From a virus (Duplodnaviria; Caudoviricetes): 58,054 bases of DNA. Positions 11,718 through 43,863 of the stretch are shown one piece after another; within the stretch, counting starts at the first letter, position 1, and every line of letters begins with the position of its first letter. The stretch is taken from positions 1 to 58,054 of the IMG/VR virus record IMGVR_UViG_3300032234_000118; one strand, 5' to 3'. Position numbers and translations under genes: made by a program. The notes under the pieces were generated by a model that ran no database searches, had not been told where the DNA came from, and saw only the letters and a program-made list of their open reading frames with translations.

Positions 11718-11743
11718 ATATATCATGTTTATTAAATAAAATT

Positions 11744-11759
11744 TATTTTTACTATATTA
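11744..11759 (+). promoter_or_regulatory. Candidate late-promoter motif
   Basis: tatttttactatatta upstream of ATG 11778. Confidence 0.4.
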
Positions 11760-11777
11760 TAATATACACTTAGTACT

Positions 11778-14312: not shown

Positions 14313-14316
14313 CACT

Positions 14317-16935: not shown

Positions 16936-16991
16936 TAAATATGAGAGGTTTAATAAACTTATATTATTTTTGATTATAAATAAAAAATATT

Positions 16992-19900: not shown

Positions 19901-20426
19901 AGGTTCTAAACCTACATGGTTAGGAAGTTATAATGCTACAGCGGGTGGTTCAAGAGATTGGCAATCATATACCATTATGGTTAATGATCCTACTTTCTTA
20001 AAAGATTTTGTTGGTACTAAAGATAATCCAGGAATGTACTATGAGTACTTTAAAGATAATAAAGAAGGAGCTGTAACAATGTATCTTAAAGATTCAGCAG
20101 CACAAAATGCTTTACATGTACAGACTAAAGTTCCTGAAATAGAAAAACTATTAACTGTAAAAGGTAGTGTTCCAATTGCATATGGTAAGTATGACGGAGG
20201 TATATCTAAACTTACTATGACAAGAAACCCAACAGGAGGATACTATGTTAATGGAAGTGTAGCAACAGGTGTAGATGATGTAACTAATGACTTCATTTAT
20301 GAACCGTTAAATTTAGTTTTTAATTCAGGTGCAGATAATGCTAGTTTGATTAATGAGCAATTGACTCAAGTACTTGATCAACTTAATTTGAATGTAATAT
20401 CTCAGATGAATAACTTAATGCGATAA
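16992..20426 (+). CDS. Ejection/cargo protein with glycine-zipper hydrophobic segment
   Basis: 1144-aa helical protein containing GGVLGAAGLGAATGGAFGGPIGAGIGALFAGP; lies just before the giant genes. Confidence 0.6.
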   Translation: MSTYLSGTPTFLPSVQPYEPNLQLYAGALQMKQTQYDTNRKKISNLYGSLLNSSLTRQNNINARDEFFNTIDYEIKKLANVDLSLEQNVSQATKLFSGLYENKNIIKDMMWTKNYQSQVERGEGFRNCVDPEKCGGQFWQGGLDALEYQRQEFQNMSDDEAMGYHDVTYTPFINVGEKANQIFKDYGWNVKMDSPSADGKWIITTKNGEQIIGPVYSHLQSIIGKDPAIAEYYRTKSYLDRKTWVSGNTAQYGSEDAALQEYINQKSKEINDAIGNINQDAQYAKENTKRRAEDLKENIESGKVRDTTSAQSEYERLFGESESHAETEKVTSTALTSTQNSLASQNLRYQAETLDGASALLNLNMDLYDSAKILAYKDYEQTYKVNDYALSQQNHMFRMQEAKYKSDLEYENDKKLLDLEMQGQQMLNERFLGALASDVDTDPNAAFNRVNELANEATATAYTNTQEVFRRTYDAAKTKVQEGGNGSAQAELDLIKMTDEFLNQYVSQATQQGAADAGEMGKMYEKFKNGTTQYKLAFAKSYDMSKDFGKLNQNMLNAAYKYSVKGMYSGDQSNINRTYLGGIREQLSYKVLAADEALTSVEKWKEAKVDVYKRAAEVARTKGDTKYADYYESLVTKQGGIANENQFALNVAEKAMKNAQNASSQATLDDYKKIFNENFATRKQWIDQNLSTKLSESERKALANGTGDYAEAYEMAKNKFAEQMVKSDTQKRTDAKGQPIEPGIDKKNLPNVYITKGGIADGGGFFDGERVAVPYTEFFDDNGLVRAKYAKYADTWEHDDNAFWQTYNEAKALYKGDAKPGGVLGAAGLGAATGGAFGGPIGAGIGALFAGPLNYMYGGEGPTINDEFLNSFKEVFTDKYVTGAAEEQLGLMGIGSGTTQSLDGYVDYSAPLSKNVLEEQSFLRDAFGAIRDKDVFFSFGKAGNSLPGMSNVQAEQFVKQLLGQAIKSGKGSKPTWLGSYNATAGGSRDWQSYTIMVNDPTFLKDFVGTKDNPGMYYEYFKDNKEGAVTMYLKDSAAQNALHVQTKVPEIEKLLTVKGSVPIAYGKYDGGISKLTMTRNPTGGYYVNGSVATGVDDVTNDFIYEPLNLVFNSGADNASLINEQLTQVLDQLNLNVISQMNNLMR

Positions 20427-20437
20427 AATTATTTATA

Positions 20438-23400
20438 ATGGCCATTAAACAACTTGTTGATTTAGCTGATTACTTTCCACAAACTAATGTTAAATCTAAT
20501 GATCCTATAAAGCAAGCATCTCAGTCTTCTCCTTCTGATGATGCTTTTGCAATACTTAATAGAGAGTTACCAAAAGTTCAACAAAATGTTATTGATCCTT
20601 ATATGCGTGGTAAAGAACGTGTGTGGGGCGCTGACATGAACAACATGAAGTATGAGAGGTATTATAATCACCCTCAGTTCAATAGATTAGGTTTTAATCC
20701 ATTTATAGACAACGAAGCAAAGTATAATGCTAATAGTTCATGGACAGATGATTTAGCCAGAGCATCTACACAGTGGGGTACTTTAGCACAAATAGGTTTT
20801 GGATTAGGACCAAGTTCAGATAGAGAGGAAGCTAAATTATATAAACGTGCAGCAGATATAGGTACATCTACAAGAGGTGGTCTAGGAGGTTTTGCTACTA
20901 ACTTATATCTTAACTCAGGATACACCTTTGGTTTGATGGGTGAAATAATCCTAGAAGAAATAGGATTGGCAGTAGCTACAGCAGCTACGGGTGGGGGTGC
21001 AGGAGCAGCTGCATTAGCACGTACTGGTGTGAACGCTAGCAGATTGGCAAGAGGATTTCAAAAAACAGGGCAGTTCTTTAAGAGCACTAATAAGATAGTT
21101 AATGCTCTTGATGATATGGCTGATGTTAATGTCTTTAGAAAAATATATCAAGCAGCTAAAACAGGAGAAATTGGTATTGGTAAATTTGCTGCTAATAGTG
21201 CTAGGTTTGCTGGTAAACAAATTGCTGGTGAAACTTATAATTTTTTATCAAACTTTAATAAGTTAGATAACTTAACTGGAATGGCCAAAACTACATTAGG
21301 TTTGGGGTCTGCATATAGAGATATAAGAAATGTAAGATTAGCATTTGCAGAGTCAGGACTTGAAGGAGGAATGGTAGAGAATCAAATGCTTGATGATTTA
21401 TACTCTGACTTTGTAAGTAAGAATGGTAGAGCTCCAAATGAAGAAGAGGCTGCTAAAATTAGAGGAGTTGCTAAACAAGCAGGCGGAGATACAATTTCTC
21501 AAAACATGCCTGTAATTTATTTTAGTAACAATATTGCATTTGGTTCTTTATTTAAGGCTATCAATCCTATGCGAAAGATAGTTCCTGAGTTAGGTAATAA
21601 TTTTGCCAAACTTATTTTAGATAAAAAGAAAGGATTTGAAGTAGTAGAGAAAGGTTTTAAAACATCAATAAAAGCTTTAGCTAAACCTAAAACATATGGT
21701 AAGATGGCACTTAGTTATATGAGTGCTAACTTAGCGGAAGGTCTTCAAGAAATTGCACAGGAAGTTATATCTGGTACAAATACAGATTACTATAAAAATT
21801 TATATAGTAATGGAGCAAGAGGTGGTTATTATGACTCATTAGCAAAAAATATTAGCAGTCAGTTTTCATCTCAAGGTTTTGAAACATTTACATCAGGCTT
21901 CCTTATGGGAGGTTTAGTATCTCCTGTGTCATCAGTATTATCTGGAGTAGGTGGTAAGTTTAATGCACTTACTGATAAAAACTATCAAACTACTAAAGAA
22001 CAAGCTATTGCAGATCTTAATAAGAAAGCTAATATATTAAATGATCTTTATAAGGATCCTCTTAAAATGCACAACTTAAATTTAAATAATCTAGTTGAGC
22101 AGAAAGAGATGAGCCAAACAATGAGTGAGGCAGAACAAGAGGGTGATACTAAAAAGTTCTATGATACAAAGTATAGATCTATGGCTAACCATTTCTATAC
22201 TGTATTAGAGAATGGTATGGAAGATACCTTTAAACAAAGATTTAAAGAGTTATCTTCATTAACAGATGATGAACTTATGGAGGCATTGCCTACTGCAGGA
22301 GATGTAGAACAGGCTAGAAAGAACCTTCAAGAAATGAGTACTAAAGTTGATGAGTTTAAAAAATCCTATAAGTTTGTAAAAGAGAATTTTAAAAATCCAT
22401 TTGACCCAAGTAAGTATAAAGCAGATACTCCAGAATATCAACAAGAAGCTTTTGCATATATATCTTTTCAAGAGGCGCAGAAGGATGTAATTTTTATGAG
22501 AGAAGGTTTTAGAACCTCGCTTGTAAGAATGAATAGTATTTTAAATGAAGCTGTAAAAGATGTAGGTGTAAGTACAATAAATACAAGTGACATAACTAAC
22601 CTATTCTCTATACAAGGAGTACAGACTGAAATAAATAATCTTAAAGAAGAATTAGCTGTATATGGTGAGCAAGAACTTGTTACACCACAAGCTAAAAAAC
22701 TATTTACTCAAAAGAAAGAAAAGTTAGATGCGTTACAACAATTTGATACAGCATTAACAGATTTGCTTTCAAATATTAATACGGATACTGAAACGTTGAA
22801 CAAAGACCTTGAAGGAGGTACTAAGAAAGTGGTAGATGTTAAACAACGTGAAGTAGATCAAAAAGTATATAATAAAGCATTAGATGCATATAAGAATTAT
22901 ATAAAGACTCTTGCTGGCAGAGCTCCAGTTACAGATAAAAATTTAGAGGCAGCGTTTGATAAACTAGTTGACTATTATAACCTTGATAGTGAAGGTGTAA
23001 ATATGAACAACGCAGTTAACACATTAATGAACCCAGAGGCATTCTTTGAATATGCTGCAAGAAAACAACAAGTAATAGCATCTGAACACGCAAATAGAAA
23101 GATAAGAATTACTGAGGCACTTAATGAGTATAGGAAAGGAATGGAAGGTAATAAACTTCTACAAAAACTATATGAAAAAGATATGTTCTTTGACATAGCG
23201 GATTATGAAGCTCTTGTCAATGAGGGTAAGATGCCTAGAAGAATATATAATATTTCTAATAATGATGAGATAAAAACTACTTCTTTACAATATGAAGAAG
23301 CAATATCCATATTTAGAGACTTTGCAATTGAAGTATTAGATATTCCATTAGATTACAACAGAGCTCTTGACCAGTACAATACTGAGGCTAGAGAGAAGTT

Positions 23401-25156
23401 CCCTTTTGACGAAAGAACTTATACAGACTTAGCTGAACAATATGGGTTTGACCCTACAGCAAGTACATCCAAAGTACCATTAAAGCAAGTATTGGAAGCT
23501 ATAGTTGACAGTGAATTTGCAACAGACCAAGAGAAGGCCTTAGCAAGAAGACTTGTTAAATTTGCTAAACCAAATGAGACAGTTACATTTGTTAAAAACT
23601 TAGCTGGTCCAGGTAAGTATACTACTGAAGATCAATCAGTTATAGATGCAAGATACTCTGCTAGTGAGTTTAAATCAAATGCTCAAAGTTATCCACTTGA
23701 AGTTTCCATTCTACGAGAAGAAGTAAATAGAAGATTATACAATGGACTTAAAGAAGATCCAGAGTTCAAAACTAATATGCAAAATTTATTTAATAGTGCT
23801 GTTCAGTACTATAGAGATAATGAGCAGTTTTATGATAAACCATTCATAGGTCTTGTATCATTAGAAGATTTCATGCGGGAGACTATGACAAGTGATGCGT
23901 TTAGAACATTCTTGTCAGAAGTAGAGTTTGAAGGTAAAACCACTACAGGATGGGTAGATTTTGTAAATAAGTCTACAGACTATATACAGAGTGTATTCTC
24001 AAATGAGTCTACAAATACTGCGCTTAATGGAGCTATTGCAGCTATAACAACTAGAATAGACAAAGCATATAAGCAAGCGCAGGAAGTTAAAGGTGAAACT
24101 GTAGAAGAAGAAGTTGTTAGACCTGAGAACATGACTGTTGAAGAGCTCAATGAAACTAGTCCAGAGTTAATGGCTGAGTTAGTTGAGGCATTTAAAGAGT
24201 ATAAGATAAATACAACTGGTCTAGCAGTACAGACTCCTGCAGAAACTGTAGAGGATGAAATAGAATTGATTAAAAACAGTACTGACTTTGAAGCATTTTT
24301 AAAACTTAAAACTCCAAGAGTATTAGCGTTGTATGAAAAGTACTTCCCTCAAGCTGGGCCTAGAGTTATTCAAAGAAGACCAGGTATTAAGCAGACACAA
24401 ACACAGACTGATCAGACATTCTTACTTACAGAACAAATAAATAAACTTAAAGACCTAGGATATACCCAAGCTGAAATAGAACAGATGGATGTATTAGAGG
24501 GAATTAATATTGTACTGCAAGGAGAAACTAAAGAAGAAACATTAGCAAGGGTAAGAGCTGAGCAAGAAGACCTTGACCAGCAAAGAGAAGACGCAAGAAA
24601 AGAAATAGTAGATAGATTAAATGCTATAGAAAACTTTAATGATTTTGAAATTTTTGATGCTGAGTTAATAGCTGATGTAACTCTTAGAAATACTTCTGGG
24701 TTTAAACCATCTGAAATCAATGAGATGTTATTAAACAAGAAGAAAGAACTTGCATATAAGACAAATTTTGACGATATTAATGTAGATGATTATTTGGTTA
24801 TAAATAATCTAGAGAAAGGAATACAAAGTGTCTGGAGGATTGCTAAGAAGACTAAAAATCAATTAACTTTGGTTAGTCTTAAAGATGCTACTTCTACATT
24901 CACAATTAATAGAAGTGACTTTGCTAAGGATAATACAAAGAGACTTATATTTAAATACGATATTAATATGGCTCCAGAAGATATGAAAATGAATGAAGTT
25001 ACTCCTGAAGGTCAAGCTACTTCTAATGAAAACGTACAAGTATTTGAAAACTTATCAGAAGAAGAAATAGATGCTGCATTTAAAGCTTCTAAAAATATAA
25101 ACCCTGATGCTGCCTTAAATAACTTTTTAGATAATCTTAATAACGCTTGTAAATAA
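20438..25156 (+). CDS. Giant virion/ejection protein 1 (hydrophobic N-terminal helices, degenerate zincin-like domain)
   Basis: IGLAVATAATGGGAGAAALA and EGLQEIAQ..GFLMGG motifs; REEVN followed by GLVSLEDFMRE; first of the three giant genes. Confidence 0.7.
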   Translation: MAIKQLVDLADYFPQTNVKSNDPIKQASQSSPSDDAFAILNRELPKVQQNVIDPYMRGKERVWGADMNNMKYERYYNHPQFNRLGFNPFIDNEAKYNANSSWTDDLARASTQWGTLAQIGFGLGPSSDREEAKLYKRAADIGTSTRGGLGGFATNLYLNSGYTFGLMGEIILEEIGLAVATAATGGGAGAAALARTGVNASRLARGFQKTGQFFKSTNKIVNALDDMADVNVFRKIYQAAKTGEIGIGKFAANSARFAGKQIAGETYNFLSNFNKLDNLTGMAKTTLGLGSAYRDIRNVRLAFAESGLEGGMVENQMLDDLYSDFVSKNGRAPNEEEAAKIRGVAKQAGGDTISQNMPVIYFSNNIAFGSLFKAINPMRKIVPELGNNFAKLILDKKKGFEVVEKGFKTSIKALAKPKTYGKMALSYMSANLAEGLQEIAQEVISGTNTDYYKNLYSNGARGGYYDSLAKNISSQFSSQGFETFTSGFLMGGLVSPVSSVLSGVGGKFNALTDKNYQTTKEQAIADLNKKANILNDLYKDPLKMHNLNLNNLVEQKEMSQTMSEAEQEGDTKKFYDTKYRSMANHFYTVLENGMEDTFKQRFKELSSLTDDELMEALPTAGDVEQARKNLQEMSTKVDEFKKSYKFVKENFKNPFDPSKYKADTPEYQQEAFAYISFQEAQKDVIFMREGFRTSLVRMNSILNEAVKDVGVSTINTSDITNLFSIQGVQTEINNLKEELAVYGEQELVTPQAKKLFTQKKEKLDALQQFDTALTDLLSNINTDTETLNKDLEGGTKKVVDVKQREVDQKVYNKALDAYKNYIKTLAGRAPVTDKNLEAAFDKLVDYYNLDSEGVNMNNAVNTLMNPEAFFEYAARKQQVIASEHANRKIRITEALNEYRKGMEGNKLLQKLYEKDMFFDIADYEALVNEGKMPRRIYNISNNDEIKTTSLQYEEAISIFRDFAIEVLDIPLDYNRALDQYNTEAREKFPFDERTYTDLAEQYGFDPTASTSKVPLKQVLEAIVDSEFATDQEKALARRLVKFAKPNETVTFVKNLAGPGKYTTEDQSVIDARYSASEFKSNAQSYPLEVSILREEVNRRLYNGLKEDPEFKTNMQNLFNSAVQYYRDNEQFYDKPFIGLVSLEDFMRETMTSDAFRTFLSEVEFEGKTTTGWVDFVNKSTDYIQSVFSNESTNTALNGAIAAITTRIDKAYKQAQEVKGETVEEEVVRPENMTVEELNETSPELMAELVEAFKEYKINTTGLAVQTPAETVEDEIELIKNSTDFEAFLKLKTPRVLALYEKYFPQAGPRVIQRRPGIKQTQTQTDQTFLLTEQINKLKDLGYTQAEIEQMDVLEGINIVLQGETKEETLARVRAEQEDLDQQREDARKEIVDRLNAIENFNDFEIFDAELIADVTLRNTSGFKPSEINEMLLNKKKELAYKTNFDDINVDDYLVINNLEKGIQSVWRIAKKTKNQLTLVSLKDATSTFTINRSDFAKDNTKRLIFKYDINMAPEDMKMNEVTPEGQATSNENVQVFENLSEEEIDAAFKASKNINPDAALNNFLDNLNNACK

Positions 25157-28100
25157 TGTTCTGTTCTTTAAATTCTGAAGAAGGTAAGAAGGCATATATT
25201 GCTCTTACAACTTATGTAGGTTCTGTAATGAACAACATTGCTTTTTCTCCTGTAGATAAGTTTGATATTGACAAGCTTATGAAGGATACATATGACAATG
25301 TTTATAATTCAACAAATAATTATGAGCAAGCAATAGATATAACTAGAGCAATACCACGCATCGTACTTTCATTAGCTCCAAGAGATATTAGTATATTGTC
25401 AACACTTATACCTAAAGGTTTAAATTTATCATCAATAGCAGAGTATGCAACACAGGCTAATGAAGAAAAAACAGGAATAAGTTTTATTGAAGATAAGCTA
25501 GGAGTTTCTCAAGACATACTACAAGAAGTTAAAGATGCACAAGAGGGTACAGTAAAACAAGAAGTTCCTGAAGAGAAGATAGAAAGTGAGTTACCTGAAA
25601 TACAAGTACCAGGAGAACAACTTACTTTTTCATTTGATGAGAATGGTGAAGTAGAAACTGTAGACGTTACTGAAGAAGTAACTAAACAGAAAACTGATAT
25701 AGAAGCTAAGAAAGCTGATATAGAAAGAAGAAGACAAAAGGCAATTGAATTTAATAAAGGAGCTAAACCTGTTACTGAAGAAGATTATAAAGAATTTGAT
25801 AAAGATTTTGTACTTACAGAAGAATATAAAAAATTATTAGGTACGTATGATTTTGATTTAGATCCAGAATCTAGATCTGATGATGATTTAGTAGGTAATA
25901 TTAAATCTATACAAGAAGGTATGGATTTAATCAATGCTAAATATGATGCAGAATTGGCTGCTTTAGAAGATACTGAAGAACAAATTATATTACCTGAAGA
26001 CAAAGTATTTGAAGCAGTAGCTCCGCATGTACTTAAGGATACAGATAATGAAGCTCTTAGTATGGATAAGGCTAGTTCTAAATTTAATGTAATTGATCCT
26101 GCAAAAAAGCTGTTCTATAAAGTAAAAAGAAATATAGTAAGAGCAATAAGAGGTGGAGCTAAGTCTTCAGAGATAAACTACCCTGGCGTAGGTGCATTGT
26201 ACCTTAAAGCACAGAGCTCATCTCTACTACCTGAAGATGTAAAACTTAAAGATTCATCTCCAGTAGTACTAGTAGTTGTAGATAAAGATGGTAACGCTGT
26301 TAAGTTTGATGACAATGGAAACGTGTCACCTACTGGTAAGATATCATTCTATAATTTACGTACACCATTTGATATAGATGGTAAGTATGAGAAGAAAAGA
26401 ATAACTGCACTAGCAAAGCAATTTAAAATAAGTGAAGAGGTTGCTAAAAAAGTATTATTAAAAGAGAGAGGTGTTGTTGAAGAGGTACTTGATTATGTAT
26501 CTAAGGATATAAACAATACTGTTATTATGGATATTACGGGAGGTACACTTGGTCACTTAGGTAGCCAAGCAGAACCTTACCTTATATCTAAAGTTGCATT
26601 TGGTAAAGATGTGTTCCGTGTAGACTATGACGGTAAAGGAAACTATACATTCAGATTACCAAGTGTAAGTGATGACGCAATTAGAATTGGTAGAACAGAA
26701 ACTAAAGATTCACCAGCACTAGTAGATTTGTTATCTGACTTCATTGTAAATGACATCTATACTACTAGCGGTGCATTATTAACTAATAAGGAAAAGAAAG
26801 ATATTCTAAGCAGATATCTTATGCTTAGCTCTTCACAGGTATCTGTACTTTCAACTGGTCCAATATTACTTGGAGAAAAAATGCAAGTAAATACTCCTGA
26901 AGAAAGAGTAGCAGCCAAAGAAGCACTAGTAAAGTATTTCAATAACTTATTCCCATACAAAGTATTAGATAAGGGAGAAGTAAATGACAGAGTAAGGAAC
27001 GGAGCTAGAATAGTTTCTGATATTAATGATGCTACAAATAGGGGAGATATACTAGCAAAGACAGATGTTAATACTGGAGAGTTAGTGTATCAGTTATTGA
27101 CGTATCCTACATTAAACATTACTAAGGCAGGACTTGATGCTGGTATGCATTTTAGTCTAGCTAAGGATGATGTTAATGGTGGTATGCGTATGACTCCAAT
27201 TGTCAATGGATATACTGAGAACTATATAAAAGAAAACTATAAGATTGACAAGCTATTAAATGCTGAGAATCAGTTAGTTGCGTTAAATGCATATCTTACA
27301 TTTGAGCCAGTATCTTATGAGACAGGAAAGATAGATCCTGTTACTACTAAAGAAGAAGAGGAAGAGCTTGATGACTACGATGCATTTCTTGAACAATTAA
27401 CAGCTGAACAAAAAGCAGCTTATGATGCGCTTCCTGCTGAGACTAAAGAGGCAATGGCTATTATTAAAAATGCTAATGCTAATTTACCATTTAACGGTAT
27501 TCTATCTCAGCAAACAGTTCTTACGTTTGAAAATAATCTAAGAGGTGGTTTATACGACAGAAACTTTGCAGTAGAAGTATTGACTCAACTTAAAGATCAA
27601 ATTAAATTAAGTGCAGAGCAGATACGTATTGCTGAAGCTAACATAAGGAAGTTTACTAAACCAGTACAAGCTCCTATATCACCAGTTCCTGTTACAGGAT
27701 CAACTAATATTACAGCTACTATACAACCTGTTGTAAATAAAGAAGGTAAAGTAAATATCTATGATGGTACAAAAGAAAATGCACATCTTAGTAATTTTGC
27801 TGAACGCCCATTTGTATATGAGGGTACAGAGTTCCCTACTGTAGAACATGCATTTCAATATGCAAAAGGTAAGTTTTATAATGAGTACGCAATAGATCCT
27901 TCAAGTGATGAAACTCCTGATCAACGTAGAGCTTTAGTTGATAAACATCTACAGAAAATTCTTAATGCTAAGACTGCTGCAGAAGCCAAACGTCTAGGGC
28001 GTGCGCAAATTGGAGTAGACTTTGAGGATGATATGTGGGATGAGGCTTCTCCAGCTATAATGAAGAAGTTAATTGAAGAATCATTTAAACAAAATCCAGA

Positions 28101-37100: not shown

Positions 37101-38286
37101 TAAAGGGCCTGTTGTAAGTAATAAAAATATAGTAAAGCCTTCTATTATAATCAATGAAGATTTGATTAAGACTTTATTAGGTGAAGAGTCTGTTGGTTAT
37201 ACTATCCCTGGTGAAGAGATAGGTATCACATATACTATTGATGGTGAAAAGGTAAACAGCAGAATTGAGGTACAAGAAATTGAAGACATTGGTTACTCTG
37301 CTGATAGCTTCCCTACAGGAAACGCATATGTAAGTAACGAAAGTAATTTCTTAGTTAAGGTTAAAGGTGTCAAGAGTGGAAAAGTATCTCAGTATATTGT
37401 TAATGCTTACGGAGATGTAATATACAATGTAAAAGACAATGGTGAAATTTCTCTTTCAAGAAGTAGTACTAAGTTAGATATTGACTTACCACTTAAGAGA
37501 AAGAAAGCTGGATACATTGTAAAGAGTTATACTGAGATTGATAACTTAATCCAGAATACAGGTATTCTTCCAGGTACAATAATAGACTTGATGGAACCAC
37601 ATCCTAAAGTTAAGACTACTAAGAGTACACTATTGTTATACGATGCATTGACGCTTACTCTTGTTCCTGTTACTGATACATATGATGATGTAATTGAGGA
37701 GAAAGAACTAGCTGAGGATGACTCTAATTTCTTTATGGTTTACAATGGTGCAACTTCTCCTAGAGGTAACATCTATCAAGAGAGACCTTCAGCAACTGCT
37801 GCTCCTGGTGGTAAAGGGTCTGTTGATTTAAAAGATAGGTTCATACACCACAGTGAGTATACTAATAAGGTTGGTTTAATAACTAGATTAACCTATGGTG
37901 GTGGTACTACAGTAGAATTTATTACAGATGAAATAGATCCTGAAACTGGAGCTGCAAGCGTAAGACCTGAAATTAAAGAAGCAATAGATTTAGGCATTGA
38001 AGAAATCAAAAATAAAATAGAAAAAGAAAATCTAAAACCAAGATTTAGTAGTGCAGGTTATGGTCAGTATATGATTGGTGCTGATGACATGACCTCAGAG
38101 ATAATTGGTGATCCTATAGCTAAGGAAACTTTCATATATTTGTCTAAGAAACTATTAGAGCTAGGCTATATTAATCCTAACTTTATAGAGAAAGCAGAAG
38201 GTTTGAAAGATGTTGCCAGTGCTACTAAGCAACCAGTGACTGATGAAGAGTTTGTAGATCTAATGAATAAATGTTTTAACATATAA
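25156..38286 (+). CDS. Virion-packaged single-chain (crAss-type) DNA-dependent RNA polymerase
   Basis: 4376 aa. RIPIQG...AKSGGDFDIDK with the catalytic DFDID at 33673-33687, as in phi14:2 gp66; also KRNAG, DAQG, VDIAKDP and a HEAWH zincin motif at 28609-28623. Confidence 0.92.
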   Translation: MFCSLNSEEGKKAYIALTTYVGSVMNNIAFSPVDKFDIDKLMKDTYDNVYNSTNNYEQAIDITRAIPRIVLSLAPRDISILSTLIPKGLNLSSIAEYATQANEEKTGISFIEDKLGVSQDILQEVKDAQEGTVKQEVPEEKIESELPEIQVPGEQLTFSFDENGEVETVDVTEEVTKQKTDIEAKKADIERRRQKAIEFNKGAKPVTEEDYKEFDKDFVLTEEYKKLLGTYDFDLDPESRSDDDLVGNIKSIQEGMDLINAKYDAELAALEDTEEQIILPEDKVFEAVAPHVLKDTDNEALSMDKASSKFNVIDPAKKLFYKVKRNIVRAIRGGAKSSEINYPGVGALYLKAQSSSLLPEDVKLKDSSPVVLVVVDKDGNAVKFDDNGNVSPTGKISFYNLRTPFDIDGKYEKKRITALAKQFKISEEVAKKVLLKERGVVEEVLDYVSKDINNTVIMDITGGTLGHLGSQAEPYLISKVAFGKDVFRVDYDGKGNYTFRLPSVSDDAIRIGRTETKDSPALVDLLSDFIVNDIYTTSGALLTNKEKKDILSRYLMLSSSQVSVLSTGPILLGEKMQVNTPEERVAAKEALVKYFNNLFPYKVLDKGEVNDRVRNGARIVSDINDATNRGDILAKTDVNTGELVYQLLTYPTLNITKAGLDAGMHFSLAKDDVNGGMRMTPIVNGYTENYIKENYKIDKLLNAENQLVALNAYLTFEPVSYETGKIDPVTTKEEEEELDDYDAFLEQLTAEQKAAYDALPAETKEAMAIIKNANANLPFNGILSQQTVLTFENNLRGGLYDRNFAVEVLTQLKDQIKLSAEQIRIAEANIRKFTKPVQAPISPVPVTGSTNITATIQPVVNKEGKVNIYDGTKENAHLSNFAERPFVYEGTEFPTVEHAFQYAKGKFYNEYAIDPSSDETPDQRRALVDKHLQKILNAKTAAEAKRLGRAQIGVDFEDDMWDEASPAIMKKLIEESFKQNPEALANLLTTGNLEFTHTQDKSRWGTEFPKLLMEVRNELKTTPLAESNTVEIQDPADAKAEPDSKLDKKRKVSGRKVTRGGKINLSDDTFGKQIDNDEEHFKLYAQKSVNPKATMAQIEAARKWYESNPISKYFPFRQLFDLVNEKNPDSVATWSMNGVMLYKGSDFTDLYHEAWHGFTQALMSTEQRDEIYSEVRKKSGSFTDYEGKIVQFKDANNKQLEEYLAEDFRKYMLSKGKKVEKGAPKKNTFFRKLMNLLEFLFGNATIQEVTADNKATSRLQEVYEKLSAGEFSDYAFNKDNAEFGSLNKSGIQAITEEDTFKNFSAKESKLLLDSMDAWIAEAILAANSGIENRKEYEEFNKKSIDMFLNKMTPQQMEEFRIEMAPKLTYGQTAKYLRTKEGRTNAYKAVQYKLAELVNRVFDEQEAEKDPAKKLKLRETHTLLYKAFTNFGDVTNIENNQPGKNGELKGLITYHMAKSKEFSGKMTDLLDEAEASDETKSSRSEYSDKSGNDTSLRDLAKAEVIYMFKTLYKYDPKTGQPVLNEIGAPILMDITATWNKVALILENERNVTRMYEKLLAYAQNPEQTEMTYAIRQLLTKMGPKGVSGENLGHLQNKDSENLWTDFWSVFSTRRIPLIAMTTEMKMSKGEVESISTRIGRGINPNIQIGKAWNSLFKSDATNKYMTRVDGIPRLNLDKVLEDFKDADYVINNNKVFDFLDAIGVKLTRNKEIELALRDGDSELGIPGDYKIVKALLTPTLNRVKEDPEYKKIYSTIVQKNVERRSLLQILNENGVWIQQPSDIFEAREGMFVAGREKLNPGTPEESYRDIKIGKLTGEKSNWNQALALEGQYGQGVVSFMVTTASGTTQFEHSLNSTMSIMVTSLNEVQDDENSSAYEKLIKMPHMSHFDIERNPNAKRYAWLKNMFYIDDAYKNTALWGRRKEVKGVPVKLDLYNISGAQLAGEEGVSSASADPFTKFIFDLHLVTQKGLGEFMKHSDKSSSYAAALNYILSPDGLDDPQRGMYITNKDFLKSRNAYHRRAFQNYILPNIISEHTRIMKLRAKKEEIDNILKQIQKEKKEGKQITPTPVYDFTYLKEGQKFHVFGNVLNKNTKDKLLKIDDLEQFFNSDVNEAQQKLMDDLVVETQMYFEKKFKENKELFDEAGFISDTQFDAVIESLKLADGEPAPNRQELTEAILNSFTYNNWIHNLESINMLYGDLALYNHLKEEFHKRNAGIASTGKGYRTDNDMINFINNYGSREFENQVRSAQGLAARQYDGTLNTGVMRDKITRSEYLEEIGFNLYNQLKEKAMKNKPSDKTEAEVEKELKTKLFGKKYSDIDIKTVESLKDVVPQDRSIMSNYYSMNEADAQGWISFDAYRILSMSQNVWSPAQENMYKAMLKGEEIPGDKIGTFFPPIKAQYWGNLKTNDLPIVAFHKFQLTPITPSLTKTSPKMAQLHEKMMLEGIDYALFESGSKVGTLTTAQFDEKGEVIRDEEGNVKSLKDDVYNKDREITDSPFTVNTIYVEYLKNQLSIEPKYKGKVTIPTQIRKLIEVDMTENGIPTDYQVGKALEDRIESWFGLTEKQKLDASDKYKKIRRYEDSVMKLTLIKKQQLLNKAKLKVNSDGELVGNMDNLIKFVKSQLTAQDIADHELDFIDFDYTSGKMKNDLSFSLSADKIENLLNALVYKTMIRQTTKGESLIQVSGAMLEGQKLTAATEEILAKYGTNGLTYYRINKEKGIINAMKIKISMQGDFEKLLYLPDVAVFKTKTDEQNKTVTRKGVPIQELDYNASLENLNRLIKDETWLDKGDNRQMISLHGDRIPIQGLNSDEFAEVYEFLPKDVGNVVILPAEIVAKSGGDFDIDKITWMMPNISLNMNTDANDNSVYDVSLYKAFSDDQYKKKYEEYKTKAAEKVITEGFEPGLDRTMAIFTYYKLFGGKEVVNSQITDALIEEGELLTFEEFVLKDQEKAAQNELLFSINNLSSQTDNYINLVRPNGIDILEPVVNDLKKVYRDYRAQITTNDEDAPSKGIHATRVLEYRYNLSKQTHNNYGKKALGIGAVDNTYNELFNRVGMYLIPNNREFVKGLESADIEASVKRALAFRNASDLINNKKKEKQEITSDDWSAFNKAKKEFTQEDKEIISNFQRQTLYLPHNKMTAKDASGVKYKDKAISLSHIMDAKGENKIGDVISQLMNGWVDIAKDPWIFYIRGDEKLGPMLLFLVQAGVPVDHAAHLLSQPVVVDYMETVSKLQSQFSDAIFKTDTEGEAKEKITRDKAILRAKEIIMEKLGYEITGVGKSRIANLNKKISEESVYVLDKVLKDGEFAMDDLKDQLDYVKTKYNKFGKDGLLVGDQTEIDYSDPKIADYQRSVFLHFLQIADMESALKDVKLRTNFDTSKTSNLFEAQNKMLQLMELKRSRTDSNTQKKYWRLPSEVIDRMVPTIKDASGNDTGLLDESKVGAIVGGFYQQPFQLQLWKDLFPLRNNPILNSFMIDMSFTKKDDSKSATFFKDDTQLMSAFKSSLLPIIFQNSFLGFDASQLTSRNLDTVKFKGMDLKVATVGAFETGAFVKNAGSVVDGVKLEQPVLYFDINALWSQFNEGFYATKGYSKLGLAKLDQGTFTSFNEYIKFVFERETLRSQYVGEGSKKSMKALQETPEYKEYFKDSINDVKRKETDGVKESTYDWNKRRHRLAFERYIKDKALQNAYNLYAMFNGQTAYAYEVTKIKFDPRFEGLVDKFPVLNNLIPDSEQSQVSKKQRINLAFLDAPTTGDEINNYYEQLQDLANEVQISKAMPELKSDELNEIATVFRKLPIAAFLQSGMSTVGRYSLVRVVNQDTITSMILQPVKEFIDKISEDNANGNYETLNNYWDAFVSANKIYDARGKNFVIKTNIEGKAVEDLRQARFTVEDPTAYGVKRTYNPFFIDENGVPTESYSKVGDQIDVVFTVSGKDFVSKGHILSLEWKDNRVIATVENDNNRNLYTFKFNLSGELTEYIKDDLSDKGPVVSNKNIVKPSIIINEDLIKTLLGEESVGYTIPGEEIGITYTIDGEKVNSRIEVQEIEDIGYSADSFPTGNAYVSNESNFLVKVKGVKSGKVSQYIVNAYGDVIYNVKDNGEISLSRSSTKLDIDLPLKRKKAGYIVKSYTEIDNLIQNTGILPGTIIDLMEPHPKVKTTKSTLLLYDALTLTLVPVTDTYDDVIEEKELAEDDSNFFMVYNGATSPRGNIYQERPSATAAPGGKGSVDLKDRFIHHSEYTNKVGLITRLTYGGGTTVEFITDEIDPETGAASVRPEIKEAIDLGIEEIKNKIEKENLKPRFSSAGYGQYMIGADDMTSEIIGDPIAKETFIYLSKKLLELGYINPNFIEKAEGLKDVASATKQPVTDEEFVDLMNKCFNI
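27751..28215 (+). other. NADAR (YbiA/DUF1768-like) domain within the virion RNA polymerase
   Basis: LSNFAERPFVYEGTEFPTVEHAFQYAK..ILNAKTAAEAKRLGR..WD..IMKKLIEESFKQNP..LLTTG..DKSRWG..PKLLMEVR. Confidence 0.85.
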
Positions 38287-38289
38287 GAA

Positions 38290-41200
38290 ATGAGTGTTTG
38301 TCCTAATATTAATTTACCTGAATGGCAAGCTTTAGAAAAAGCAGTTGGAAGATTTGAAGCGTATAAAGATTTTGTAGAATCTGGTTATGAGATCAGATCT
38401 GTTGAAGAAGTACAGGAAAAGATTGATAAGAGAAGAGAAGGCATAACTAAAGCTAAGGTATATCCTCATACTCAAGGACTTATGTCTGGAAACTTATATG
38501 AGGTAGAACAAGCCTTAGCTGATTCTTCACAGCCAAATATTGAGAATATGGCTAAAAGGATAGCTAATGACTCCAATGTTACAAGAGCAATGGAGATAGC
38601 TAGGAAACTATCAAATTCATTAGGGGTAAACTTTGACATCATCAATGCTGAAAGAGCACAGCAGATTACTGCAGGTACTAAGAATCCTTGGACAGGACAG
38701 CCAGCATTTTACTATGGTGGACAAGTATACTTTGTAGGTGAGACTTTATCTGTAAACAATGTATTGCATGAGTTTGCTCACCCTTTAATACGTCAGATAC
38801 AGGTAGATAATCCTGCATTGTTTCAGAATCTATACAATAAGTTAGCTGCTACTGATGAGGGTGTGCAGATAATTAATAATGTAAAGAATAACAATCCTGA
38901 TCTTATGCAGGATGGTCAGATGTTCCAGGAAGAGGTAATGGTTAAGGCTCTTGAGAAGGCAGCTGTTGATCAAGAACAAACAAGTAAGTTTGCTGCATTT
39001 ATTAGAGATATCTTATTTGCAATAAAGAAAGTATTACGTAATGCTTTAGGTAAAATAGAGGTAAGCTCACTAGATCAGAATACTACATTGGATCAACTAG
39101 CATACATGCTAACCAATGACCAGTTCCAAATAAATACTGAGCTAATTACTGAGGAGGATGTAGTTGCGTATGTGCGTGATTATCAGCAGGAGATAAATGA
39201 TATGGCTCGTATAGATAAGGTACAGCTACAAGCACTTATTAAACAGGCATATGACTTAGCTGCGGGACAGTTAACAGAACTACGTAATAATGAAAACTAT
39301 AAAGAGTTAGCATTAATCCTTAGAGACCAGTATAAGGTTCCTGAGATGGAGGTAATCATGAATGATCTTAGGAAGTACAGATCTGAGATAGATAAGATTG
39401 TTGATGATGAAGTGGCTTCTATGGAGAGATTGGAGTCACAGGCTAATGCATTAGTAAGTACTGTATATAACATAGATACTGTTATTAGCAAGATCCAGAT
39501 ACATATGGATGACATCTATAAGACTGGGGATAGCCAAAGCAACATGGCTAAGATGCACTATTATGCTAAGATAGTTAAGTACTGGGGTAAGTATATCCAA
39601 CAGTTAGAGGAAGAGTTTAATAAGCCTGGTTCTGGTGTAAGTTCTTCATCTAAGATATATCAAGTAATCAATAACATCAATACCAATCTTAAGAAGATTG
39701 AGAATGTGGCTGATGAAATGGCAGCTGATGGTGCAAGGGATACTTTATATTCTGAGTTAGAACCTATAACTAGAGATGTAAAAGCTCGCTATGAAGAAAT
39801 CATTTCTGGTCTTAAAAAGAAGGGTGCTCCTCAAAGAGCTATTGATAGATGGCATAAAGAGTACTATGGTCTAACAGAGGATGCATATAAGCGTTATTCT
39901 GAGCTGCGAGAGAAGCTGCGTAATAAACAATACATGTCTAATGCTGAACAGTTAGAATATGCTAACATGCGTATTGATGCTGCTAAAGGATTAGAGTTAA
40001 CTCCTGAGAAGATTGAGGATTTACTAAAGGGTAAGATTGGTGACGCTAACTGGTATAGTTCATACTTGGAAGGGTACTTGTCTAATCCTGATCCTATTGT
40101 GGGTGGACTAGCACTATTTGTAAAGAATAGAATGAATGAGGTGATGGCTAGAGCACAGGCTAAGTTCAATGACTTCTCTGAGGATATATCACAAGCACTT
40201 AAAGATTATGGGTATAACCCAACCAATATAGGTAAGCTAGGTAGAGATACTGGCTTTGAGGATATTGTAGCTGTGGAAGAAGAAGGGCAGTTGGTACAGA
40301 AGAAAGTATGGACATTCCTTAATCCTTTTAAAGATTATAGATATGATCTTAAGGTGATGAATAAGAACCTTGATGAGGCAGAAATAGAATACTCTACTAC
40401 AGGTACTGATGAGTCACTGGCTAAGTTGAGAAATGCTGTTGCTGAGAAGAAGGAGTTCATGAGAAAGTATTTCCACCAGGAATATAAACCTGAGTTCTAT
40501 AAAAGACAAGAGTTACTAGAAAGAGATGAGATAGGTAAGATAGCATCTCATATGCGTGAAACTATTATAGAGAAGATTCGTAAGGAAAGTAAGCTAGGGC
40601 AAAATGAAACTGAACAGTTAGAATCTACTCAGAATATAGATAGATTATGGAGAGAGTATAGACAATTACATTCCTTATTTGATTTGTTTGGTAATAAGAA
40701 AACAGGTCAGGACTTGCAAATAGCTGAAAGGTTGCGTGAGTATAGAGATCAATCTAGAGAGTTCTATAACTGGAAGGAAAGAGCTGGTGTATTCCAAAGT
40801 TTATTAAATAAGTATGAGGATGAACTAGCTGCTAGGTTCTCTAAGGATGACCCTATGTATAGTACACTCCGTGATGAATGGATTAGAAAGAATACAAGGG
40901 TAGTTATTAAGCCTTCATTCTATACTAGAAGACAAGAGATATTCCAGAAAATTAAAGATATCTTAGATACTTTACCTGATTCCCAAAAGAAGGAGGCTGA
41001 TTTATCTGTACTGCATAATGCTATTATAGATATCAAAGCTGGATTTAGAGATGAGGATGGGCAACCTAACCCAGCTGAAATGACTAAAGAAGCAGTAGAG
41101 AAAGTTAAGAGACTGGAAGAAGAACTGCAAGAAAGAAAGAAAGCATATATTGGACTAAATGGTTTAACTGGTGAAGACCAGGCTAGACTAAGTGAATTGT

Positions 41201-43863
41201 ATTCTATTAAAGCTACTCGTGATTTAACAGCACTAGAAGCATCTGAGTTAAATACTTTGTATGCTAGGAAGTCAACGAACCAGTTAGACAAGTACTCTAA
41301 GGCTGCACTAGAAGAAGCATATAGAGAGTTGGAGGAAATGTCTTCTACTGAGGCTACTAATTACTATACTGATATAGTTAACAACTACCTTCAGAGAATG
41401 GACACTGACTTTATGCAAAGCAGGACAGGTTCTAGAATAATTACTGAAACTAATGCTGATGGCTTGTTAGATGATGAATTGATTACTAACTTGAAATCTC
41501 AAGATGCAGAATTTGCTAGATGGTTTGATGCTAACCACGTTAAAACTACTGATTATAAAGGTGATATAAAATATAAAAGAGTATCTGTATGGTCTGTAGT
41601 TAGACCTGCTGATTCTCAGTACTTAGAGAAAACAGAAATTAAAGATCGTAGTGGTAGAGTAATTGAGGTGATTGATGGATTACCTACTTTGAAATACTAT
41701 AAGCAGGAGGTTAAGGAAGAGTATAAAACTGATTTGATAATTGGTAAGACTATAGATAACAAGGGTAACTTCTTACCTAAAGCATTAGAAGATAGAGATC
41801 CAGGTGTTGATGATAAGTATATCAACCAAGAATACTACAGGATTAAAAATACTAATCCTCAGTTATTCAACATCTTAGAAAAACTAAAAGAACATCACTT
41901 AAGAAACCAGCAAGGACTAGATGCATACTCTAAGTTGTATTTAGATTTCCCTAGGTTTACTAAAGGTAAGTTTGAAACTATTCAATCTGCTGATTTAACA
42001 CAGTATGTAGGACGTGTAAGAGAGTTCTTTAAGGGAGCTAAAGATGATGCTGAGTCAGGATTTAACTACAACAATCAGTCTAACATGGTTAAGTTAGATA
42101 TGTTTGATGATGAAGTTACTAAAGTTCCAATAGCAGGATTGTATAATCTGGATGCTAAAGATGTATCTACTGATATCATTACATCTATGATGAGATATTC
42201 ATTGTCTGCTGAAAGACAAAAGCAGTTGATTGAAATAAGTCCGTTAGCTAGAGCAGTACAAAAGGTAGTAAACAATCCTAACAATACTGTAGATTTAGAG
42301 AAGATAAACAAGTGGAACTTTGTACATAGACAGCTTATCACATATAAGAAAAAGAAAGGTACAAGTGTAAGAGCAAGTGCTGTAAACAATTTCCTTGAAA
42401 GAGAGTTTGAAGGGCAGACACAAAAAGGTGTAGCCTCTGAGTCTGCGTTCATTAACAACTTTACTAATTTACTATTTAAGAATGCATCTAGACAGTTCTT
42501 TGCATTGAATATACCGTCTGCTCTTAAGAACTACTATAGTGCTAAATGGCAGACAGTCATTGAGACATCAGCAGGTAGATATCTTAATCCTATCTCTGCT
42601 GGTAAAGGTAATGCGTGGGCATTTGCTGCTATGGGTGAAATGAGTTTTACAAATCAGCTATATAAGAAAGGACCTAAGTCTTTGAATATGCAGTTGATAG
42701 AAATATTTGATCCATCACAAGGTAGGTCTGAACAAAGATATGGTAGTTCCATGTCAAGAACAATTGCTAAAGATGTACTAGAGGGTAGCTGGTTATATAG
42801 TCCTAGAAAGTGGTTAGAACTTCAAGCTACTCTGCAAGTATTTGCTGGTATGATGTATCACGTAAATGATATAGAAAGAAAACTTCCTAATGGTACTGTA
42901 CAGAAAATTAGCTACATGGATGCTTGGGAGTTAAGAGATAATAAGATTCAGCTAAAAGAAGGAGTTGATCCTAAGTGGGGTATTACCTATGATGAAAATG
43001 GTGAGTTAAAAGTTGGGACTGAGTTCAATAGATTTAAGAACAGAATGCAACAGGTGATGAATAATCTCAATGGTGCATATGCTGAATTTGATCAACCTGA
43101 AGCTCAAAGATATGTAGCATTTAGAATGGTAAGTTTCATGCGTAAATACTTTACCTCAATGGTAATGAACCGTATGGGGCATAAAGGTCCATTGTGGAAA
43201 GCTAGTCCTAGAATGAACTACGGAATGGGTGAGCAGCATATGGGATTCTATGTACAGACTCTTATGACTATAAAGAATGCTGCATTAAATGCTGACGTTA
43301 CTTTAAAGTATGCTACTAAAGAAGAGAAAGCTGCTGCAATGAGAATGCTTACTGAAATAGCATTGTTGATGTTAGCATCCTATGTTATCTATGCACTGTT
43401 TGGATATGACCCAGATGATGATGAAAAGTGGGATAAACTAAAAAATCTATCTGGCCCATTACCTTTCCCATTTGTTGAAACTGACAGAGACTTTAATGCT
43501 ATGGGTTATCTTAAACTACATGCATTAAATCAAGTAATGTCTGTAAGAGCAGAGAATGAACAGTTCTTACCATTACCAGGAGTAGGTTTAGATGATTACT
43601 TAAATCTTACTGACTTAAAGTCTATTGCATTAGGACCAACAACTGATACATGGACAGCTGCATTTGAAGATTTATATGCTATTGTAACTAATAGTGATGA
43701 TGCATACTATACCAGAGATGTAGGACCTTATTCTTTCCAAAAGAAAGAGAGTCCTAAACTTATAGCTAAGCTTGCTAAGTTGGCAGGATTTACAGGTACA
43801 TCATTAGACCCTGCACAAGGAATTAAGAACTTTGTTGGTGCACAAGCACTCGCAAGAAGATAA
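38290..43863 (+). CDS. Giant virion/ejection protein 3 with N-terminal zincin-like motif
   Basis: 1857 aa. AFYYGGQVYF..LHEFAHP (38767-38781)..EEV; hydrophobic helix LTEIALLMLASYVIYALF near the C-terminus. Confidence 0.75.
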   Translation: MSVCPNINLPEWQALEKAVGRFEAYKDFVESGYEIRSVEEVQEKIDKRREGITKAKVYPHTQGLMSGNLYEVEQALADSSQPNIENMAKRIANDSNVTRAMEIARKLSNSLGVNFDIINAERAQQITAGTKNPWTGQPAFYYGGQVYFVGETLSVNNVLHEFAHPLIRQIQVDNPALFQNLYNKLAATDEGVQIINNVKNNNPDLMQDGQMFQEEVMVKALEKAAVDQEQTSKFAAFIRDILFAIKKVLRNALGKIEVSSLDQNTTLDQLAYMLTNDQFQINTELITEEDVVAYVRDYQQEINDMARIDKVQLQALIKQAYDLAAGQLTELRNNENYKELALILRDQYKVPEMEVIMNDLRKYRSEIDKIVDDEVASMERLESQANALVSTVYNIDTVISKIQIHMDDIYKTGDSQSNMAKMHYYAKIVKYWGKYIQQLEEEFNKPGSGVSSSSKIYQVINNINTNLKKIENVADEMAADGARDTLYSELEPITRDVKARYEEIISGLKKKGAPQRAIDRWHKEYYGLTEDAYKRYSELREKLRNKQYMSNAEQLEYANMRIDAAKGLELTPEKIEDLLKGKIGDANWYSSYLEGYLSNPDPIVGGLALFVKNRMNEVMARAQAKFNDFSEDISQALKDYGYNPTNIGKLGRDTGFEDIVAVEEEGQLVQKKVWTFLNPFKDYRYDLKVMNKNLDEAEIEYSTTGTDESLAKLRNAVAEKKEFMRKYFHQEYKPEFYKRQELLERDEIGKIASHMRETIIEKIRKESKLGQNETEQLESTQNIDRLWREYRQLHSLFDLFGNKKTGQDLQIAERLREYRDQSREFYNWKERAGVFQSLLNKYEDELAARFSKDDPMYSTLRDEWIRKNTRVVIKPSFYTRRQEIFQKIKDILDTLPDSQKKEADLSVLHNAIIDIKAGFRDEDGQPNPAEMTKEAVEKVKRLEEELQERKKAYIGLNGLTGEDQARLSELYSIKATRDLTALEASELNTLYARKSTNQLDKYSKAALEEAYRELEEMSSTEATNYYTDIVNNYLQRMDTDFMQSRTGSRIITETNADGLLDDELITNLKSQDAEFARWFDANHVKTTDYKGDIKYKRVSVWSVVRPADSQYLEKTEIKDRSGRVIEVIDGLPTLKYYKQEVKEEYKTDLIIGKTIDNKGNFLPKALEDRDPGVDDKYINQEYYRIKNTNPQLFNILEKLKEHHLRNQQGLDAYSKLYLDFPRFTKGKFETIQSADLTQYVGRVREFFKGAKDDAESGFNYNNQSNMVKLDMFDDEVTKVPIAGLYNLDAKDVSTDIITSMMRYSLSAERQKQLIEISPLARAVQKVVNNPNNTVDLEKINKWNFVHRQLITYKKKKGTSVRASAVNNFLEREFEGQTQKGVASESAFINNFTNLLFKNASRQFFALNIPSALKNYYSAKWQTVIETSAGRYLNPISAGKGNAWAFAAMGEMSFTNQLYKKGPKSLNMQLIEIFDPSQGRSEQRYGSSMSRTIAKDVLEGSWLYSPRKWLELQATLQVFAGMMYHVNDIERKLPNGTVQKISYMDAWELRDNKIQLKEGVDPKWGITYDENGELKVGTEFNRFKNRMQQVMNNLNGAYAEFDQPEAQRYVAFRMVSFMRKYFTSMVMNRMGHKGPLWKASPRMNYGMGEQHMGFYVQTLMTIKNAALNADVTLKYATKEEKAAAMRMLTEIALLMLASYVIYALFGYDPDDDEKWDKLKNLSGPLPFPFVETDRDFNAMGYLKLHALNQVMSVRAENEQFLPLPGVGLDDYLNLTDLKSIALGPTTDTWTAAFEDLYAIVTNSDDAYYTRDVGPYSFQKKESPKLIAKLAKLAGFTGTSLDPAQGIKNFVGAQALARR

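Follow-up and report, generated by a model that had tools for sequence, protein, structure and literature searches.

Crassviruses are the most abundant phages of the human gut, and it is not yet understood how the megadaltons of protein that they carry as cargo are stored, ordered and injected. That their RNA polymerase (RNAP)-associated cargo proteins are packaged and ejected is described in Bayfield 2023 (PMC10172136), the Drobysheva preprint, Yutin 2021 (PMC7886860) and a 2023 review, whose passages on the cargo are silent on cysteine (Cys). An N4-like ejection operon (N4 gp50-52; DEV gp71-73) likewise provides, in the sections that describe it, a giant virion RNAP (vRNAP) that passes a narrow tail in a loosely folded or unfolded state, and Cys is strongly suppressed in N4-like ejected proteins according to the relevant sections of PMC11445570 and PMC13434306. 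Here we analyse three consecutive genes, A, B and C, in the IMG/VR virus record IMGVR_UViG_3300032234_000118 (positions 1 to 58,054; this whole stretch of 58,054 nucleotides is hereafter the window), whose products correspond to crassvirus cargo proteins and carry only four Cys, placed as facing pairs at the two junctions between the proteins, and we propose that these Cys probably couple the proteins end to end. The three genes are arranged as follows:

Positions 20438-25156, plus strand: protein A, 1572 amino acids (aa), first member of the proposed chain (list of open reading frames, ORFs, and script count).
Positions 25156-38286, plus strand: protein B, 4376 aa, by homology and ORF list a crassvirus-type virion RNA polymerase, middle member of the proposed chain.
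Positions 38290-43863, plus strand: protein C, 1857 aa, with an N-terminal zincin-like domain (ORF list, family profile), last member of the proposed chain.

The A and B genes share one base (TAATG), and B and C are in the same reading frame, with only a TAA stop and a single GAA codon ahead of the start codon (ATG) of C (38284-38292).

A script count found 4 Cys in the 7,805 aa of A, B and C taken together (0.05%), all of them at most 4 residues from the two facing junctions:

Positions 25148-25150, plus strand: codon TGT of Cys1571 of A, the penultimate residue (tail ..NNACK) and the sole Cys of A.
Positions 25162-25164, plus strand: codon TGT of Cys3 of B (MFCSLN..), invariant in a 40-sequence alignment (A3).
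Positions 38272-38274, plus strand: codon TGT of Cys4373 of B, fourth from the end (..NKCFNI), invariant in alignment A3.
Positions 38299-38301, plus strand: codon TGT of Cys4 of C (MSVC; MSVCPNINLPEW..), invariant in alignments A1 and A4.

Thus, B has Cys at residues 3 and 4373 only and C at residue 4 only, and the outer ends in the window (the N-terminus of A and the C-terminus of C) are without Cys. The first-pass annotation of this DNA had reported this Cys count, the positions and codons and the bare outer ends, and the script count matched it at every point. Cys makes up about 0.5-8% of most other ORFs of at least 100 aa in the window; four ORFs upstream of A (10635-20426; see below) and two small minus-strand ORFs are, like A, B and C, poor in Cys or free of it. 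Random placement of 4 Cys on the 16 facing-end positions among 7,805 has a probability of about (16/7805)^4 = 2e-11.

The terminal Cys recur among homologues of all three proteins. A Cys lies within the last 8 residues in 83 of 87 homologues of A, where it is usually the sole Cys, and near the N-terminus in none (0/87). The 120 homologues of B listed, out of 271 found, include 119 with a Cys in the C-terminal 6 residues and 106 with one in the N-terminal 6, and in most of them the Cys total over more than 3,000 aa is exactly two; in the complete B ORFs, 121 of 131 Cys are terminal, in 234,607 aa. All homologues of C (101/101), which reach down to 21-24% identity, have a Cys within the first 12 residues, at positions 3-5 in 95 of them and with no other Cys in 84. 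A search with residues 1-300 of C against 1.84 billion representatives of clusters at 50% identity returned 139 further proteins, with 174 Cys in 262,531 aa, and the N-terminal Cys is present in 127 of them, the remainder being mostly fragments. The offset of the terminal Cys from the N-terminus is 2-12 overall (3-6 in 204/207) and from the C-terminus 1-8 overall (1-6 in 201/202), leaving 0-7 residues beyond a C-terminal Cys and 1-11, usually 2-5, before an N-terminal one, and no conserved His, Asp, Glu or second Cys was found at a fixed offset beside it. Because the pattern is conserved in several hundred homologues, we conclude that it is under selection and not due to chance.

To count the Cys on both sides of individual junctions, we used two scans of viral contigs comprising 80 loci each, one anchored on C and the other on the polymerase core of B, which share contigs, so that the two B|C counts are not independent. 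In the polymerase-anchored set, the unique A|B junctions comprised 62 with both Cys, 0 with a single Cys and 1 with neither, and the unique junctions between B and the next protein comprised 60, 0 and 2, respectively. In both of the latter cases with neither Cys (L093 and L118), B itself is broken by a change to an overlapping frame, a frameshift rather than a gene end (at about 14985-15028, in a run of Lys codons, in L093 and at about 10834-10840 in L118; sequencing error or programmed slippage is possible). The C-anchored set, from which 13 duplicate junctions and 6 that could not be judged were left out, has both Cys at 60 unique junctions, a single Cys at 0 and no Cys at 1 (L079). One test named in the first-pass annotation, whether the terminal Cys are conserved and paired across junctions, thus gave the predicted result: on these contigs a junction has both or neither, never one.

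The products of the block can be related to described crassvirus proteins. With B, tblastn found phi14:2 g066 (E = 4e-5), cr108_1 (1e-8) and cr128_1 (2e-5), the matches, at 22-29% identity, being to g066, annotated as 'catalytic RNA polymerase subunit', and to the 'putative RNA polymerase' of Kehishuvirus, cr112_1 and cr128_1; by blastp, B and g066 align over three collinear segments (E = 8e-10, 2e-8 and 3e-5). B contains the following motifs and domain:

Positions 33673-33687, plus strand: DFDID (Asp2840-Asp2844), the catalytic motif of crassvirus virion RNA polymerases (alignment).
Positions 27748-28221, plus strand: NADAR domain, residues 865-1022 (match to PHROG 1017 and 652).
Positions 28609-28623, plus strand: HEAWH (His1152-His1156), a zincin-like HExxH motif (alignment).

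D2840, D2842 and D2844 are invariant in the 40 homologues of A3, and the motif aligns with the polymerases of phi14:2, Kehishuvirus and cr11_1, while phmmer of B directly against PDB chains gave no polymerase match. The earlier label 'RNA polymerase' for the 4376-aa protein is thus supported by the DFDID motif and by homology to phi14:2 gp66, and on these grounds B is a crassvirus-type virion RNA polymerase, with the two double-psi beta-barrel fold of that class and packaging in the virion as predictions. The NADAR domain also matches Pfam PF08719 (residues 873-1008, E = 4.9e-13), and H1152, E1153 and H1156 are invariant in A3. The zincin-like region of B (residues 1064-1276, 28345-28983) has sequence matches in the C-terminal part of Kehishuvirus A and in the A portion of a cr108_1 fusion protein (see below), and the domain has therefore moved across the A|B boundary in evolution. 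C carries a second such motif:

Positions 38767-38781, plus strand: HEFAH (His160-His164), the zincin motif of C (alignments).

H160, E161, H164 and E215 of C are invariant or nearly so in A1 and A4, and the C family profile matches phi14:2 g065 (4.9e-23) and the gp49-like C of Kehishuvirus (1.2e-30). A model of residues 1-300 of C (mean predicted local distance difference test score, pLDDT, 77.5), in which the first 50 residues are predicted to be ordered, had no Foldseek match to the PDB at E <= 0.001, weak rows including the metalloproteases PPEP-3, ArdC and lethal factor. The A family has no blastp or profile match to phi14:2 g067 or Kehishuvirus A, and we equated A with gp67/gp47 by its position upstream of the polymerase, its size and its having only a C-terminal Cys. 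A, B and C thus correspond to the cargo proteins gp67, gp66 and gp65 of phi14:2 and gp47, gp50 and gp49 of crAss001, as judged by position and, for B and C, also by homology.

Named phages have the same Cys layout. In phi14:2, g067 (1797 aa) ends in its one Cys, the two Cys of g066 (2180 aa) are residues 3 and 2179, and that of g065 (1421 aa) is residue 3; Kehishuvirus 'tikkala', cr112_1, cr128_1 and DAC15 share this layout with at most 3 extra internal Cys. In the latter four, and in Mahlunavirus, A is encoded by the opposite strand (in the four, at a distance from where B begins) and keeps its single C-terminal Cys, so that the feature belongs to the proteins and not to the DNA; a nucleotide-level signal at gene junctions is ruled out. 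A Cys pair is also found at A|B in crAss002 and the p-crAssphage-like LMMB and at B|C in Fpv20, cr1_1 and cr109_1. The annotated cargo-block genes of cr109_1 contain in-frame stops (L174, 4261-6135 and 19141-23286), which fits stop-codon reassignment, as it is reported for some crAss-like phages. In the Intestiviridae (cr11_1, cr110_1, LMMB and crAss002), A ends in Cys and the next protein, a B-C fusion with 5-7 internal Cys, begins MSC (in crAss002 only with Met33 as the start), and the zincin-like HExxH sits in the C-terminal part of A; small profiles of the C-termini of B and the N-termini of C from Steigviridae, used to place the B-C joint, gave no significant match in the fused proteins. 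Upstream of A, LMMB (L169, 6536-9121) and crAss002 (L170, 6456-8129) each encode a smaller, cargo-like protein whose one Cys is close to the C-terminus (at -2 and -8, respectively), and the protein after it is without an N-terminal Cys, leaving no visible partner.

Natural splits add to the junction data. Of 8 loci examined for a short protein following B, 7 encode an extra protein, X (209-754 aa), between B and C that has exactly two Cys, one per end, and is followed by a protein with an N-terminal Cys; in the eighth (L141), X is cut by the end of the locus. One locus (L138) encodes a chain of five, consisting of a pre-A protein with a C-terminal Cys, an A' protein, B and X with Cys at both ends, and C with one at the N-terminus, and a C-terminal Cys in the last chain member was never seen among the C homologues and loci examined. 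Pfam scanning of the X proteins gave no match. They are not foreign inserts, because they match the N-terminal part of one-piece C proteins: X of L130 aligns with P0075, P0078 and P0079 over their residues 1-117 and with P0085 over residues 254-515, and X of L143 and L148 match residues 1-170 of P0086, P0088, P0089, P0091, P0092 and P0094. In these one-piece relatives the sole Cys is at position 3 or 4, and the split point is without one. In L143 and L148 both X and C are without HExxH, yet Cys pairs are present at B|X and X|C. A gene for a GIY-YIG homing endonuclease (15736-16329; 197 aa, 3 Cys, ordinary Cys content) lies exactly between X and C of L130, and this split may have arisen by insertion of the endonuclease.

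Fusions show the converse. The B protein of L151 is a 4665-aa A-B fusion ORF in which residues 108-407 match phi14:2 g067 (E = 4e-13) and the B profile begins at residue 746; its sole Cys is at -5, its upstream neighbour is Cys-free, and the 148-kb record yielded no separate A. The 2967-aa A-B fusion of cr108_1 matches the N- and C-terminal parts of Kehishuvirus A and then B; its Cys1534 and Cys2406 are both away from the joint (at about residue 1690), and the separate B|C junction has both Cys. Judging from size and position, two further proteins appear to be A-B fusions: gp33 of Fpv20 (4419 aa), which has one Cys, at -2, and a polymerase core about 1,900 residues farther from the N-terminus than in gp66, and is followed by gp34, beginning MAC; and a 4551-aa protein of cr1_1, with HExxH at 2001, DFDxD at 3445 and Cys at 4026 and -4, followed by a protein beginning MSIIC. 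Two internal sites that we considered as retained junction Cys, 'kktCLTSD' (cr108_1 Cys2406) and 'aefieseC' (cr11_1 Cys3427), were rejected, as the blastp map puts both far from the joints. The polymerase gene of cr108_1 (L004) is in addition interrupted by about 290 non-coding bases (21888-22177) directly after the 'GSD' of the catalytic motif; the next ORF restarts with 'YDIDK', the family profile continues without a gap (positions 2265/2266), and the interruption looks like an intron in the active-site motif. In the second test named in the first-pass annotation, the predicted result was again obtained: splits gain junction Cys, in the form of X proteins with Cys at both ends, and A-B fusions are without Cys at the joint. 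The rule, then, is one Cys pair per polypeptide break and none at fused joints or outer ends, as a pairwise end-to-end link predicts.

This pattern supports, at the level of sequence, a pairwise functional coupling of the facing termini. We consider it probable that the facing Cys are couplers that form a pairwise head-to-tail thiol link, in its simplest form a disulfide, and thus a beads-on-a-string cargo chain. According to this model, A, B and C would have been purged of Cys as ejected proteins, with each neighbour-facing end retaining one; the C-terminal Cys of one protein would pair with the N-terminal Cys of the next; and an intermolecular disulfide would form after the proteins are packed in the particle, turning A-B-C (four to five pieces in some relatives) into a single linear chain. 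With only 0-5 dangling residues per Cys and barely thicker than one strand, the joint could pass portal and tail like a polyprotein, after which the reducing cytoplasm would open the links, releasing the polymerase together with its partner proteins. The position of the Cys near the ends fits threading, because the joint bears two short stubs only. A disulfide is favoured over a metal clip because conserved co-ligands are lacking, the Cys offset varies and crAss001 particles contain inter-subunit disulfides, which join the tail hub to the ring proteins R1 and R2 in the part of Bayfield 2023 (PMC10172136) that concerns the tail. The disulfide, its timing, the threading as a single chain and the reductive release are steps that we infer. 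Whether, beyond the link itself, the injected transcription machine is a redox-cleavable train, in which peptide bond and Cys pair are interchangeable and new cargo joins through Cys at both ends, we regard as evenly balanced.

Two other arrangements of the same Cys were rejected. A single four-Cys cluster (Zn or iron-sulphur) for all three proteins does not accommodate the chains of four or five, which carry six or eight terminal Cys, and cyclisation of B through its own two Cys is at odds with the fusions, in which the Cys of A and the N-terminal Cys of B disappear jointly, whereas the Cys at the C-terminus of B persists along with that of C.

Several points weigh against the coupling model. 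Since the cytoplasm is reducing when virions are assembled and the gut is free of oxygen, it is hard to see when and how a disulfide forms. The motifs flanking the Cys are alike between the two C-termini, and likewise between the two N-termini, and what bars mis-pairing (A to C, or B to B) is therefore in doubt. Among the 120 B homologues listed, 14 are without the N-terminal Cys, and so are the full-length C representatives P0340, P0419 and P0423; some of these may be true exceptions. L079 (about 4650-4950) has the only junction of the C-anchored set that is Cys-free on both sides; a Cys stands one stop codon past the end of B in this locus, where a reassigned stop or an error is possible. 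Finally, one conserved Cys of the Intestiviridae fusion (2319 in cr11_1, 2220 in LMMB and 2140 in crAss002) may adjoin the B-C joint, and a strict 'pair or nothing' rule would not predict a Cys there.

The pairing, split and fusion data would suit any pairwise thiol-mediated link, including one in which a metal ion (Zn, Fe or Ni) joins the facing Cys as a terminal clip, giving the same tether, released by a change in metal availability or redox state. Such a clip would need no oxidant, which suits anaerobic hosts, and the amino group of an N-terminal M-x-C could be an extra ligand. We nevertheless consider it unlikely, since no His, Asp, Glu or second Cys is conserved at a fixed offset, a defined coordination site does not tolerate a variable Cys position, and two thiolates alone make a weak site.

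We give even less credence to the idea that each terminal Cys acts singly, either as a cysteine-switch ligand that keeps the zincin latent or as an anchor to portal, capsid or DNA. It gains from the zincin-like HExxH near a Cys junction in two layouts (residue 160 of C in the window and the C-terminal part of A in the Intestiviridae) and from the predicted order of the N-terminal 50 residues of C, but it leaves unexplained the both-or-neither junctions, the Cys-free outer ends and the Cys-free fused joints, and a cysteine switch in particular is contradicted by the Cys pairs at breaks between HExxH-less proteins (X and C of L143 and L148).

Very improbable, in turn, is that the Cys are functionless scars of gene breakage, left by inteins (Cys1 and Cys+1) or other mobile elements, even though crAss-like phages are rich in introns, inteins and homing endonucleases in the account given in a part of Yutin 2021 (PMC7886860) and the endonuclease gene of L130 sits exactly at the break between X and C. 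The proteins exclude Cys elsewhere, yet both terminal Cys persist between families and at identities as low as 21-25%, and no junction has lost just one of them; for a split intein, the 0-7 residues past the C-terminal Cys and the 1-11 before the N-terminal one are too few for the fold. An origin of the pattern in chance or wrong gene calls is refuted by the conservation data, given the probability of about 2e-11 and the recurrence in named phage genomes with annotation and in several hundred sequences that were assembled independently.

The surroundings of the block identify the window as part of a crassvirus, with Pfam matches to CrAss_Ring_2 (3992-4663), CrAss_Ring_1 (4663-5628) and the muzzle protein crAss_MUZ (5641-10635). 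The ring and muzzle genes are followed by four genes for Cys-poor proteins and then by A-B-C, with replication genes on the opposite strand:

Positions 10635-20426, plus strand: four Cys-poor proteins of 360, 844, 872 and 1144 aa between the muzzle gene and A (context).

These have 0, 2, 0 and 2 Cys, respectively, and because none of the Cys is terminal we left the four proteins out of the chain. The Cys of the 844-aa protein (11778-14312; C749/C752) and of the 1144-aa protein (16992-20426; C128/C134) form one close internal pair each. Megablast of the region and tblastn of C against the phage collection gave no match, and in a scan of the region's proteins with PHROGs and Pfam the NADAR domain was the only one named. 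No thioredoxin-like protein was found by Pfam in the window, which is perhaps not a whole genome; thioredoxin-like proteins are annotated in cr108_1 (L004, 33130-33399) and cr128_1 (L086, 13392-13637).

Word searches of the literature on crassvirus virion RNA polymerase, cargo, ejection and disulfides gave no description of the terminal Cys. The words cysteine and disulfide are absent from the main texts of the phi14:2 preprint, Yutin 2021, the 2023 review and a 2026 N4 paper (PMC13434306); in Bayfield 2023, 'disulfide' occurs 7 times, and the one disulfide passage among 12 of the 22 matching places of that paper concerns the tail. Already known is the suppression of Cys in N4-like ejection proteins, whereas for the terminal-Cys pairing rule no description was found. 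If true, the coupling would account for the free drift of gene boundaries in the cargo block, for a possible means of keeping the proteins in equal numbers and in a fixed order and for the survival of a few Cys in proteins that otherwise exclude them. It would also provide annotators with a simple marker by which functionally unassigned chain members, for example the X proteins, could be recognised, and the wider reading as a redox-cleavable train would amount to a portable, generally applicable rule for how a phage particle loads and orders its proteins. Cultured phages with the pattern are phi14:2, DAC15, crAss002 and Fpv20, as well as a Kehishuvirus, the genus of crAss001.

Among known systems, the block resembles the crassvirus RNAP-associated cargo proteins in the homology of B and C and in the setting beside ring and muzzle genes, and the terminal Cys pattern is common to the window, phi14:2 and Kehishuvirus. 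The clade of the window differs from them in its 22-29% identity, in the length of B, which is about twice as long, and in the zincin-like region, which is in B in the window but in A in Kehishuvirus. A passage of the phi14:2 preprint describes the three cargo proteins as fused in some phages and 'likely cleaved'. The tail disulfides of crAss001 stabilise a fixed, Cys-containing tail assembly and are not links between otherwise Cys-free ejected cargo proteins, and the covarying Cys on two chains that mark proteins tethered by interchain disulfides are found at the crassvirus junctions.

The internal virion proteins of T7 (gp14/15/16) and P22 (gp7/16/20) are also ejected in order before the DNA, as cited in a passage of Bayfield 2023 (PMC10172136). 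These ejection proteins are held together non-covalently. To our knowledge, no covalent end-to-end link is known between the ejection proteins of T7 or between those of P22. The di-chain AB toxins follow the same logic as that proposed here, with unfolded passage through a pore, a single disulfide tether and reduction in the cytosol (in the relevant part of PMC6899712), but they are made as one chain and then nicked, with a bond that is not end to end, whereas A, B and C are separate gene products, and the analogy is one of mechanism only.

With the Cys-free ejection proteins of the N4/DEV type, A, B and C share the strong suppression of Cys, but not the absence of any conserved Cys. In N4, a single polypeptide comprises the polymerase core together with the parts N- and C-terminal to it, and no Cys occurs in the ejection proteins, according to the sections that treat them, whereas crassviruses spread the equivalent mass over 2-5 polypeptides, with a Cys pair flanking every break. 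The single-chain vRNAP of N4 is described, in a section of the 2026 paper (PMC13434306), as beads-on-a-string, which is thought to aid ejection, and a further passage states that the relation of the three crassvirus RNAP-associated proteins to this single-chain polymerase needs study. A coupled A-B-C would, by analogy, be the split equivalent of the N4 single-chain polymerase.

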